Made by a program: the position numbers and the translations under genes | The notes under the pieces: model-generated | The model's input: the letters and a program-made list of their open reading frames with translations, nothing else | What the model was told of the DNA's origin: nothing | Databases searched by the model: none | Part shown: positions 1 to 6,769 of the stretch, piece by piece | Position numbering within the stretch: the first letter of the stretch is position 1 | How the letters are laid out: each line of letters begins with the position of its first letter | Sequence record: SRR22947725_1144 | Length of the DNA: 64,000 nucleotides | Strand: one strand, 5' to 3'

Positions 1-2
1 AT

Positions 3-287
3 GTCGCCCTGCTGGTCCCGGTGTGACCCATGTGTAACCAGACCGTGAGTCTGGCAGCAGCCGAATTGGAAAAACGAGGTATTGCAACAGTAACACTTCA
101 GTTCATGAAAGAGATTGCCCTTAAAGTGGGTCCCCCCCGAGCTCTGTGGGTCCCATTCCCTCACGGTTTTGCCTTGGGTAAGCCCGGAGACCATGCTGGG
201 CAAGAGAAAGTCTTGATGGCGGCCCTCTCCCTCCTGACCCGTAAAAATATCTCTCCTCGTCATTTGGAGCTGTACGAGACAAATTAA
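3..287 (+). CDS. Selenoprotein B family protein (glycine/betaine/sarcosine/D-proline reductase GrdB/PrdB-like), 5'-truncated by the window edge; Sec encoded by UGA at 24-26
   Basis: The frame of ORF 30..287 extends upstream as GTC GCC CTG CTG GTC CCG GTG TGA CCC ATG TGT = VALLVPV-U-PMC-NQTVSLAAAELEKRGIATV. This matches the U-x-x-C...E.GI.TV...PPRA.....P.G..LG pattern of the GrdB/PrdB family. A SECIS-like hairpin follows the UGA. Confidence 0.85.
38..54 (+). promoter_or_regulatory. Bacterial SECIS element (Sec insertion hairpin)
   Basis: CCAGAC-CGTGA-GTCTGG: a perfect 6-bp stem with a 5-nt loop that has G at loop position 2 followed by U. It starts exactly 11 nt after the UGA at 24-26, the geometry of the minimal E. 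coli fdhF SECIS. Confidence 0.75.
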
Positions 288-305
288 CGCAACTTTGCCT
301 GCTTT

Positions 306-1322
306 CTATGGAAGAAACTCAACATTCACACAATTTTTGGGGCTTTGCCCACTGAGGATACGCTTCAATTCCATTGCGGCTTTCGTCCTCATTTCAAGCA
401 GTCCGGCATCAGAATAAAAAGCGGTATGAGGAGTCACAATCAAATTGACAGGAGGCTGTGTGTCTTCTTGCCATAATTGAATGAGAGGCATATCGCTACG
501 GGCTGGCTCTTCGGGTAATACATCAATTCCAGCTCCGGCAATACTGCCCTCCCGCAATGCAACAGCGAGAGCATCCGCATCGACAACCGCACCACGCGCT
601 GTGTTGATGAGAATAGCTGTGGATTTCATTAGGTCCAACGCTTTTCCGTCGATCATTTGCCTGCTTTCCTCAGTCAAAGGAGTATGGACTGATACGACGT
701 CGCAGGTTCTGAGTAATTCCTCAAGTTCCACCAAAGGAACTCCCAAGAGCTTGTCCGTACCAGCTCGCACATATGGGTCATAGGCAACCACTTCCATCCT
801 CAATCCCTTGGCTCTAACTGCAGTCGCTCCACCAATGCGTCCAAGCCCAATAATACCCATTTTTGCGCCAGCCACACGGAAAACAGGCTGAATGGCTCTC
901 ATGTCCCACGGGTTTAATGAATGCCGTATTGCACGCTCTGCTTTGATCAGCCCGCGATTACAGGCTAACATCATGGCAATCGCATGGTCAGCAACTTCAT
1001 CCACGCCATAATCGGGCACATTGCAAACGTATATGCCCATCTCTCCTGCGGCTTTTCGATCGATGTTATCGAAGCCAACCCCACATCTAACAACCGCCCT
1101 GCAATGGTGCAGTTCCTGCAGGACCTCGCGCGTGATCGAGACTTCATGACAAAGGATCAACCCATCGGCATCTGTTAGTTTGCCAAACAAATCCTGTGTG
1201 CTTTTGGCCAGTAAACACTCTACCTCGGCTACACCTGCCAACACCTTGGATTCAATCTTGGCAGGTGGTTCCAGATAATCTGTTATGACAACACGTTTCA
1301 TGTGCACATGCTGCATGAGCAT
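306..1322 (-). CDS. D-isomer-specific 2-hydroxyacid dehydrogenase (CtBP/D-3-phosphoglycerate dehydrogenase-like)
   Basis: Motifs GVGFDNID, NVPDYG.DEVADHA, Rossmann GLGRIG, INTARG, DVL..EP and TPHTAFYS. The true start may be 1301 (MKRVVITD). Confidence 0.9.
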   Translation of the reverse strand: MLMQHVHMKRVVITDYLEPPAKIESKVLAGVAEVECLLAKSTQDLFGKLTDADGLILCHEVSITREVLQELHHCRAVVRCGVGFDNIDRKAAGEMGIYVCNVPDYGVDEVADHAIAMMLACNRGLIKAERAIRHSLNPWDMRAIQPVFRVAGAKMGIIGLGRIGGATAVRAKGLRMEVVAYDPYVRAGTDKLLGVPLVELEELLRTCDVVSVHTPLTEESRQMIDGKALDLMKSTAILINTARGAVVDADALAVALREGSIAGAGIDVLPEEPARSDMPLIQLWQEDTQPPVNLIVTPHTAFYSDAGLLEMRTKAAMELKRILSGQSPKNCVNVEFLP

Positions 1323-1663
1323 GCATAGTTTGACAATCAGCTATGATCCAGAACGCCAAAACTCGATTAAAAACAAATGAATTTGACTTGCATGTTCTGA
1401 TCAACTGCATGCCAGCCTTAAAATGGGCATCACGCAATTGTTGGTGATAAATGCACCAGAGAGGTCAGTTTTTTTGATGCACGACGTTATGTTTAAGGGA
1501 GCGATTATAGCGATTCAAACCCAACGTGATGATTTAGTCTATGCCTCGAAGGTTCTTTCTTGGATCCAAATCAACCTTTCTTCAAAAAATGAAATCCGAA
1601 TTTATTTTAAGGTTCAGGAAACTGAAAAAAGCATCCTTAAAGTAACAATGATTACAATATAAC

Positions 1664-1691
1664 TTGACCCCATAATCGGGACTTCTAGCAT
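1664..1691 (+). promoter_or_regulatory. Putative sigma70 promoter for carA
   Basis: TTGACC (1664-1669), 16-nt spacer, TAGCAT (1686-1691), 15 nt upstream of the carA start. Confidence 0.45.
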
Positions 1692-1706
1692 GGGCTTTTG
1701 TAATAA

Positions 1707-2876
1707 ATGATGATGGATGCTGTCTTAACTCTAGAGGATGGAACGATTTTTCGTGGAAAAGCGTTTGGCGCCAGGACTTCCCTTTGCGGCGAAGTCTGCT
1801 TCAACACTTCCATGACCGGATATCAGGAGATCCTGACAGATCCTTCCTACAAAGCGCAAATCGTCACCATGACCTGTCCCTTGATCGGAAATTACGGGGT
1901 GAACAAGGTCGACATAGAATCCTACAAACCTCATTTATCCGGCTTTGTCGTGAGAGAACTTTCGCCCATCGTGAGCAATTGGCGAGCGGACACGGATCTC
2001 GACACCTACCTTAAGGAGAATGGTATCCCGGGCATCGAAGGGATTGATACTCGTGCTTTGACAAAACGATTACGAGTAGAGGGCGCCATGAAAGGGTTCC
2101 TTTCAACAGAAGATATTTCCGATGCTGATGCAGTGGAGAAAGCCAAAAGCTGGCCTGGCCTTGTAGGTGTCGATTACGTCAAGGAAGTCACCCATCAAAA
2201 AGCTTTTGTCTGGGACGAAGATGATGAGCAAAGTGCTGATTTTCGTTTGGTCAATGACAACGAGAAGGGAGACCCTCGAACAGCCTCGCACCCACTGCCT
2301 GATGCCGACATCAATATTGTGGCTCTGGATTTCGGCATGAAATATAATATACTACGCCGGCTCCGCCAAAATGGATTCAAAACACACGTCCTTCCTGCAA
2401 ATACTTCAGCAGATACAATTAAATCTTTGAACCCTCAAGGCGTTTTCCTGTCAAATGGACCAGGAGATCCTTCAGCGGTGGGGTATGCTGTCAAAACCGC
2501 AAGGTCACTCATGGACCATGGCTATCCGATGTTTGGTATTTGCCTCGGCCATCAGATTCTGGGCCAGGCGATGGGGGGAACCACTTTTAAGATGAAATTC
2601 GGACATCGAGGCGGCAACCAACCCGTCAAGGACCTCGACACAGGATTGGTCGAAATCACATCGCAGAATCACGGATTCGCGCTGGATGCATCATCGATGG
2701 GATCCGATATCGAAGTGGATAGAATCAATTTGAATGATCAGACAGTCGAGGGGCTGAGGCACAAAACCAAGCCGATGTTCAGTGTGCAGTACCACCCGGA
2801 AGCCTCCCCCGGGCCGCACGATTCCTCGCCACTGTTCGCGAGGTTTCGAGAAACGATTGGAAGTAAAGGGAGCTGA
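1707..2876 (+). CDS. carA: Carbamoyl-phosphate synthase small (glutaminase) subunit
   Basis: Motifs LEDGT.F.G, FNTSMTGYQEILTDPSY, LSNGPGDP, catalytic GICLGHQ, SQNHGF and QYHPEASPGPHD. Confidence 0.97.
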   Translation: MMMDAVLTLEDGTIFRGKAFGARTSLCGEVCFNTSMTGYQEILTDPSYKAQIVTMTCPLIGNYGVNKVDIESYKPHLSGFVVRELSPIVSNWRADTDLDTYLKENGIPGIEGIDTRALTKRLRVEGAMKGFLSTEDISDADAVEKAKSWPGLVGVDYVKEVTHQKAFVWDEDDEQSADFRLVNDNEKGDPRTASHPLPDADINIVALDFGMKYNILRRLRQNGFKTHVLPANTSADTIKSLNPQGVFLSNGPGDPSAVGYAVKTARSLMDHGYPMFGICLGHQILGQAMGGTTFKMKFGHRGGNQPVKDLDTGLVEITSQNHGFALDASSMGSDIEVDRINLNDQTVEGLRHKTKPMFSVQYHPEASPGPHDSSPLFARFRETIGSKGS

Positions 2877-6067: not shown

Positions 6068-6769
6068 TTATACCTTGATCAAAGAGGCGGTAATATCACC
6101 TCCAAAGCAGCAATCTGTATCACTCCCCTCACGGCGCAAACGATCTTGGTAGGACCCGCTGTAACTTGCCTCGGATTGATTCCCCTTGAACCCCACAGGC
6201 AAAGGTTCCTTGCAGGGCTCACAATATTTCACCATGGGCTCTGAGGCCCCATCTTCAAGATGTGGTAGATTCACATTCCAGAACTCACCTTTCTTGATGG
6301 GTTTGTCAGACACTTCGGAAATCATATGGCGCACCCGATCACTGGCAATGGACCAGTCAATGGGTAATCTGCGTTTGATGTAATGAGAAAAAGCCACCGA
6401 TTTCACACCCAGCAGAGTTGCCTCGCGTACTGCAGCAACTGTCCCAGAATAATAGATATCCACACCGAGATTACCTCCTTGATTGACTCCAGAAAACACC
6501 CAATCGAATGCCACACTTGGAAACAAATATTTCACAGCGACACGCACACAATCTGCAGGTGAACCGAATACCGCCCATTCCCTGTCGCGACGCTGCTCTA
6601 GCTTGAGCGGCCGTCTAGTCGTGATACGGTGTCCACATTCGGAGGCCTCTTCTCCAGGCGCCACAATCCAAACGTCCCCACCCACTGCATGCCGCAGACA
6701 TTTCAGACCTTCAGCATCAATTCCATCATCGTTGGTTAAAAGAATCTTCATTGGCTTTATCAAATTCAC
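6068..6769 (-). CDS. surE: 5'/3'-nucleotidase SurE
   Basis: Motifs ILLTNDDG, G.PADCV, SGVNQGGNLG.D..YSGTVAA and NVNLP. Likely start 6751. Confidence 0.93.
   Translation of the reverse strand: MNLIKPMKILLTNDDGIDAEGLKCLRHAVGGDVWIVAPGEEASECGHRITTRRPLKLEQRRDREWAVFGSPADCVRVAVKYLFPSVAFDWVFSGVNQGGNLGVDIYYSGTVAAVREATLLGVKSVAFSHYIKRRLPIDWSIASDRVRHMISEVSDKPIKKGEFWNVNLPHLEDGASEPMVKYCEPCKEPLPVGFKGNQSEASYSGSYQDRLRREGSDTDCCFGGDITASLIKV

Follow-up and report, generated by a model that had tools for sequence, protein, structure and literature searches.

Among the systems described so far that lie closest to the gene analysed here are the D-proline and glycine reductases, whose selenoprotein subunits PrdB and GrdB carry a UxxC motif. 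The wider family is a familiar entry in selenoprotein surveys. The Sargasso Sea survey places a ‘proline reductase (prdB)’ family with a UXXC motif third among its selenoprotein families by abundance and counts 42 Sec forms and one Cys form (PMC1088965), and the GOS survey lists 235 Sec and 110 Cys members of pfam07355 with a UxxC motif, often placing the family among the top three of a sample (PMC2398784). A survey of 2006 reports ‘proline reductase’ selenoproteins from Anaeromyxobacter and Geobacter, a family that it classes as homologous to thiol-based oxidoreductases (PMC1794560). The surveys apply the clostridial enzyme's name with no test for a PrdA partner, and the GOS paper does not contain the term ‘PrdA’ at all (PMC2398784). 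Reviews of 2022 and 2026 describe only the clostridial proline reductase. A functional study of the orphan PrdB-like branch was not found in the literature searched, and survey supplements (e.g. Table S1 of PMC2398784) may list sequences.

Here, we describe a PrdB-like gene at the 5′ edge of a stretch of 64,000 nucleotides from sequence record SRR22947725_1144, referred to as the window. With the survey family it shares pfam07355 membership, the UxxC motif, a marine metagenomic origin and a preponderance of Sec over Cys forms; compared by family and motif rather than through the survey sequences, the two show no difference of substance. The find is real but ordinary, since the pfam07355 UxxC family is an already known selenoprotein, listed in surveys of ocean microbes since 2005, and not a new kind of system. 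The initial annotation, which had presented the gene as a hidden selenoprotein, therefore overrated its novelty, at least against what these surveys list (PMC1088965, PMC2398784).

For comparison with operon-linked PrdB, three of the 24 records matched were opened, namely those with a prdB annotation. These plasmid loci, from Terrisporobacter glycolicus (pTG1), Enterococcus gilvus and Ligilactobacillus salivarius, encode PrdB proteins that are 29–32% identical to the window protein, and two of the three annotated genes read encode Sec by TGA (codon 151). Both kinds of protein have about 240 aa and can be aligned end to end, the columns of the Sec/Cys-x-x-Cys motif (161 and 164) are invariant against three PrdB or PrdB-family proteins, and D89, D96, N98, P102, G116, G127, D153, E176, R199, G208 and Q220 are invariant in common. 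The motif itself differs, being U-P-M-C in the window protein and U-G-T-C in operon-linked PrdB, and so does the gene context. In all three plasmid loci, prdA and a small gene of the CBO2463 family stand directly upstream of prdB; prdC is found upstream in Terrisporobacter and Enterococcus gilvus, and in Ligilactobacillus prdD and a proline racemase gene follow. By contrast, the window gene has none of prdA, prdC, prdD and the racemase gene beside it. With GrdB, GrdF and GrdH (TIGR01917, TIGR01918) the homology covers the C-terminal half of GrdB, including the UxxC selenocysteine; GrdB-type proteins of about 430 aa possess an extra N-terminal half, whereas the window protein has 247 aa and matches positions 216–410 of 431.

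The reading frame around the UGA

The window enters the gene late, as its plus strand from position 3 to 287 holds the last 94 of 247 codons and the first 153 lie off-window (Table 1). From position 3 the frame runs GTC GCC CTG CTG GTC CCG GTG TGA CCC ATG TGT, and its translation across the TGA, V-A-L-L-V-P-V, TGA, P-M-C-N-Q-T-V-S-L, confirms the initial annotation, which had read VALLVPV-TGA-P in frame ahead of an 85-aa ORF and thus a U-P-M-C motif. That ORF (30–287, called under table 11) begins at the Met within the motif. The 5′ two-thirds of the gene and all of the Sec machinery discussed below were read not from the window's own assembly but from the nearest genome (G001), which is 79% complete and has 91% of sampled words in common with the window. 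G001 and the window are 100% identical over window positions 1–1400. The extension in the 5′ direction that had been proposed does uncover a homologous open frame: in G001 no stop interrupts the 160 codons from an ATG to the TGA, so that the protein comprises 247 aa, with Sec at position 161 (L002:1114–1857, minus strand). As for the window at large, its GC content is 46.9%, no tRNA genes were found in its 64 kb, and a loose screen for other in-frame TGA candidates returned 36 unspecific matches.

Table 1. Features at the 5′ edge of the window (positions are those of the window)
Feature	Position	Strand	Remarks
3′ part of PrdB-like selenoprotein gene	1..287	+	2 nt of codon 153, then codons 154–247; stop TAA 285–287
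In-frame TGA, read as selenocysteine 161	24..26	+	TGA in 79/80 loci kept, TGC in 1
U-P-M-C redox motif (Sec161, Cys164)	24..35	+	C161 (= U), P162 and C164 invariant, n = 43 sequences
Predicted SECIS hairpin, 17 nt	38..54	+	stem CCAGAC 38–43 / GUCUGG 49–54, loop CGUGA 44–48
Possible 3-bp lower extension, 2x2 internal loop	33..59 (33–35 with 57–59)	+	minimum-free-energy fold
D-isomer-specific 2-hydroxyacid dehydrogenase, convergent neighbour	306..1322	-	Pfam 2-Hacid_dh_C, E = 5.7e-52

Gene callers had been expected to split such a gene, and they do. A word-indexed protein search returned 2296 relatives at E ≤ 0.001, and most of the best 120, which were inspected, are database entries of 160 aa that end just before the TGA; the source names among these 120 include Verrucomicrobia, Myxococcota, Deltaproteobacteria, Chloroflexi and Acidobacteriota. 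The same cut is visible in Pfam. The suggested search with the GRDB family (PF07355) gave a match over residues 21–158 at 40.6 bits, against a gathering cut-off of 22, and this match stops at profile position 345 of 347, just before Sec (window positions 3–17 hold its end), as it also does in at least 20 relatives. The GRDB model looks as if it had been built from sequences truncated at the UGA, and since its match goes no further than the residue preceding Sec, annotation routinely loses the catalytic motif together with the C-terminal third of the protein.

Public gene calls that end at the TGA would also be expected if the codon simply terminated translation and the 85-aa ORF were a separate or dead remnant, and TGA is the commonest stop of long ORFs in the window, ending 14 of the 32 that reach at least 250 aa. 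Conservation argues against both a pseudogene and a split gene. A scan of species-representative genomes yielded 391 relatives, and in the 80 loci kept for analysis the Sec column holds TGA in 79 and TGC in one (L092); the record titles of these loci name Verrucomicrobiota, Acidobacteriota, Desulfobacterales, Myxococcota, Nitrospirota, Gemmatimonadota and others, and a TGA kept at one column across many phyla cannot be decay. Among 17 full-length database homologues aligned, column 161 is Cys in 16 and W in one (P0013), so that homologues do carry Cys or Sec at the UGA column, a check that the initial annotation had called for. Past the TGA, a set of 43 sequences that includes Cys forms shows no variation at P162, C164, Q166, E176, P197, P198, R199, H207, G208 and Q220. 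These 86 downstream codons remain in frame, and their conservation together with the Cys forms excludes a pseudogene; judged by this pattern, the region 3′ of the TGA is translated. With a covarying hairpin at the SECIS position and the full Sec machinery of the nearest genome added (see below), it is extremely improbable that the gene is decayed or split.

Could the TGA be read as Trp, Cys or Gly instead, through a reassigned code or near-cognate suppression? The W written at the Sec column of P0013 is what such a reading would predict, although this protein retains a Sec-type downstream peptide, NQAVCL, for which reason its W most simply, and probably, reflects a gene call that applied another code and rendered the TGA as Trp. 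That TGA ends 14 of the 32 long ORFs of the window marks it as an ordinary stop codon of the standard code and the site in question as one of local recoding. In homologues that lack the TGA, moreover, the column holds Cys, the chemical analogue of Sec, and genomes with the TGA form have genes for Sec insertion: selA was found in all six TGA-form genomes searched, and selB, selD and tRNA-Sec in G001. Readthrough with an ordinary residue is accordingly hardly credible, and Sec remains the preferred reading of the codon.

Two loci are recorded here as observations. L041, titled Candidatus Binatia, has two PrdB-like UxxC genes in the same orientation, separated by about 4 kb and with their Sec codons at 6469 and 10652. 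On plasmid p546-2 of the alphaproteobacterium Roseomonas haemaphysalidis (L107, 3911–6296), a 302-aa Cys-form protein of the GRDB family is encoded convergently to an annotated SelO, the product being a protein adenylyltransferase; this is a single case.

The hairpin and the selenocysteine machinery

The initial annotation had also pointed to a perfect CCAGAC/GTCTGG hairpin with a CGUGA loop, and this structure was recovered at 38–54: six base pairs and a 5-nt loop, starting 11 nt after the TGA and thus within the coding sequence, present in both the minimum-free-energy and the centroid fold. Taken by itself, the hairpin does not stand out thermodynamically (z = -0.21 for the 63-nt stretch), as 79 of 200 shuffles fold as well or better. 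What raises it above chance is not folding energy but comparison with relatives, namely the TGA column and the covariation of the stem.

For this comparison, 80 sequences, 75 of them distinct, were aligned from the TGA onward. Among the distinct sequences, pair 15–31 is CG in 57, UA in 11 and UG in five, and pair 19–27 is AU in 37, GC in 34 and GU in three; compensatory changes have occurred many times at these two stem pairs, and all six pairs are kept almost everywhere. Pairing extends to 94.8% of stem cells, compared to 18–51% when the 3′ partner is slid by 1–3 columns, and the observed covariation score was attained by 0 of 500 shuffles. Protein selection alone does not explain the covariation of column 27 because this is a synonymous third-codon position, which tracks the first position of a Thr/Ala codon. 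The loop is conserved as well. All 80 sequences have G22 and U23, and the Val codon that makes the loop GU occurs in 79 of 79 Sec forms vs none of 16 Cys forms. The sole Cys-form DNA examined (L092) cannot form the hairpin, and its loss in Cys forms is read from this one locus together with the peptide pattern of the 16 proteins.

The covariation and the G in a small apical loop support the prediction that this hairpin is a SECIS element. It differs from the SECIS of E. coli fdhF type in that its stem lacks a bulged U. The minimal E. coli element, in work attributed to Liu et al. in 1998, is said to comprise 17 nt at a distance of 11 nt from the UGA, and the hairpin of the window fits these dimensions. 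A 3-bp lower extension (Table 1) is a weakly supported candidate, its outermost pair being unpaired in 28 of the 75 distinct sequences and no pair changing on both sides. An Rfam scan of the gene region gave no match at E up to 10.

Recoding needs dedicated factors, and the search for sel genes bears out the proposal that the organism decodes Sec. On contig C11 of G001, selB (284.6 bits) and selA (468.3 bits) are adjacent, and the genome further encodes selD (397.6 bits) and a tRNA-Sec (64.3 bits; anticodon tca by ARAGORN), all over their cut-offs. selD is itself a second selenoprotein gene in G001, with an in-frame TGA at the active-site column in the context HCAG-U-AAK (L012, G001:C4:96996–97916, minus strand), which we take to be the usual Sec/Cys position of SelD. 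In each of five further carriers of the TGA form, selA exceeds its cut-off, making six of six with G001; among these six genomes, the search for selB, selD and tRNA-Sec covered G001. The genomic evidence strongly supports the in-frame TGA as a genuine Sec codon, with UGA161 predicted to be recoded via SelB and tRNA-Sec under the direction of the in-frame hairpin.

Family placement and genomic neighbourhood

The most serious rival to a stand-alone enzyme is a genuine PrdB of D-proline (Stickland) reductase, with PrdA, PrdC and its other partners either located at other sites of the genome or missing from the assembly. PrdB (TIGR04483) is indeed the best NCBIfam model for the protein, matched over nearly the full profile (positions 14–219 of 238, E = 7.6e-35); the U-x-x-C columns coincide with those of operon-linked PrdB, and selenoproteome surveys class such genes as ‘proline reductase PrdB’. 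The score, however, is 120.5 bits and falls far short of the equivalog cut-off of 300. The models for GrdB, GrdF, GrdH and a subfamily are all below their cut-offs too (57.6 vs 602.2 and, for the subfamily, 53.7 vs 65.45). A quick maximum-likelihood tree of 80 rows, midpoint-rooted, with SH-aLRT support only and several long branches, sets the clade apart from PrdB: a branch with 98% SH-aLRT support delimits 43 clade members and two representatives, and annotated PrdB makes up a clade of its own (100% support) in the midst of further short GRDB-family proteins.

The neighbourhood tells against a PrdB subunit as well. In the three annotated plasmid loci prdA stands directly upstream, whereas clustering of 2265 neighbouring ORFs revealed a conserved partner in none of the 80 loci kept, the best non-self cluster, a TOBE-domain ABC ATPase, being present at 11 of 80. 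The gene that follows in the window is convergent, as the initial annotation had stated, and encodes the D-2-hydroxyacid dehydrogenase at 306–1322 on the minus strand, which is context only. Upstream in G001 lie a divergent 85-aa ORF and then PNPase, the latter identified from the matching cluster in relatives. We take the divergent ORF to be rpsO from reading its sequence. Local synteny around the gene, window positions 306–2876 included, is found for pnp (nine of 80 loci), the 2-hydroxyacid dehydrogenase (nine of 80) and carA (eight of 80); loci in this group include L021, L022 and L046, the last titled Pedosphaera sp. and also with the dehydrogenase as neighbour. The syntenic pnp, dehydrogenase, carA and rpsO serve housekeeping roles that do not obviously connect them with a reductase, and both the dehydrogenase and PNPase, each at nine of 80, were rejected as partners and attributed to local synteny.

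At the level of whole genomes, neither PF09338 (PrdA/GrdE) nor PF04723 (GrdA) had a match in four of five carrier genomes (G001, G002, G004 and G005). G001 is just 79% complete, so partners could be missing from it, and little can be concluded from the lack of PrdA in such an incomplete MAG; firm evidence comes only from G002, a record titled complete genome (6.1 Mb, Verrucomicrobiota) that carries a close homologue. In the Desulfobacterales chromosome G003, a GrdE-type PF09338 gene and a PF04723 gene for GrdA lie side by side, about 0.7 Mb from the PrdB-like gene, and a GrdB-type match is found elsewhere on the chromosome; this cluster is of the glycine-reductase type. Low score, separate clade and missing partners together render a genuine PrdB very unlikely. 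Apart from the shared active-site motif, the protein lacks the tested defining features of both PrdB and GrdB and, to judge from its sequence and surroundings, does not qualify as a classic subunit of proline reductase. The suspicion that it is a stand-alone enzyme rather than a Stickland subunit thus agrees with the presumed divergent rpsO upstream and with the lack of PrdA/GrdE or GrdA in four of five carriers. As an interpretation, the initial annotation was sound in all the parts open to testing: frame, GRDB match, Sec/Cys column, sel genes, split calls and stand-alone status.

Structure was explored with an AF2 model computed from the 43-sequence alignment (mean pLDDT 91.6, pTM 0.91), which shows an alpha/beta domain with U161 in a turn between strand 154–158 and helix 164–177. 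A turn between strand and helix is the usual setting for a redox-active CxxC. Solved structures brought little: a sequence-profile search of the PDB had 0 matches at E up to 1, Foldseek against the PDB had none at E ≤ 0.001, and in a wide VIA-align search the best hit reached Z = 9.1 (137 residues at an rmsd of 3.3 Å), followed by a flat list of further hits. LacI-type and SDR Rossmann-like matches were considered as a functional lead and rejected because this arrangement is common and the best Z is 9.1. As there is no closely similar solved structure, the fold offers no functional lead.

Several relatives of 380–420 aa (P0130, P0132, P0141, P0144, P0156, P0175 and others) combine an N-terminal PrdB-like CxxC domain with a C-terminal extension of about 150–170 aa, and P0197 has an N-terminal HTH_3 domain in its place. 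In 25 longer relatives the extra 150–170 residues were unmatched in Pfam, bar one N-terminal HTH and one sub-threshold UGSC. The extension of these CxxC proteins may be the missing partner in fused form.

Proposed chemistry and wider meaning

Viewed as a whole, an account in which a stand-alone PrdB-like selenoprotein is produced by hairpin-directed recoding of UGA161 and performs partner-free Sec/Cys redox chemistry is very probably correct. The mechanism outlined here draws on PrdB/GrdB chemistry, as given in a review, and on the position of the UxxC motif. The protein would be a single-domain alpha/beta enzyme with Sec161-x-x-Cys164 at the N-terminus of a helix, and the Sec161/Cys164 pair would cycle between selenolate/thiol and selenenylsulfide. 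As in PrdB and GrdB, the nucleophilic selenolate would attack the substrate, Cys164 would resolve the adduct to give the selenenylsulfide, and a cellular dithiol, e.g. thioredoxin, would re-reduce the Se–S bond, all of this operating with no pyruvoyl PrdA/GrdE partner. By analogy with the clostridial enzyme, the substrate is probably not D-proline because a pyruvoyl partner is lacking. The many invariant polar residues (R21, Q53, D64, R68, S85, H90, D96, N98, R121, S128, T130, D150, R199 and H207; n = 43) are more in keeping with a defined pocket for a substrate than with a general disulfide reductase. The reaction might be a reductive cleavage of C–N, C–S or C–X bonds or, alternatively, a dedicated selenol/thiol redox relay.

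For annotation, the consequence is practical: with the gene cut at the UGA in most of the best 120 database entries, leaving 160-aa stubs, reading on through the codon is a sound fix. It matters for a family that both surveys rank with the most abundant selenoproteins in metagenomes of the surface ocean (PMC1088965, PMC2398784). The name ‘proline reductase’ is probably a misnomer for the orphan branch, given that this branch has neither a PrdA partner nor a known substrate. The window adds one more member to the family rather than a new lead. Somewhat better than even, in our estimate, are the chances that the orphan PrdB-like clade as such, with Sec kept in 79 of 80 loci across many phyla, represents a widespread self-contained selenoenzyme that applies PrdB-type Sec/Cys chemistry to a substrate other than proline with no pyruvoyl partner. 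That Sec has been retained over Cys almost everywhere suggests that the chemistry of this branch needs selenium, and why it should do so is a question that is not new but worthwhile.
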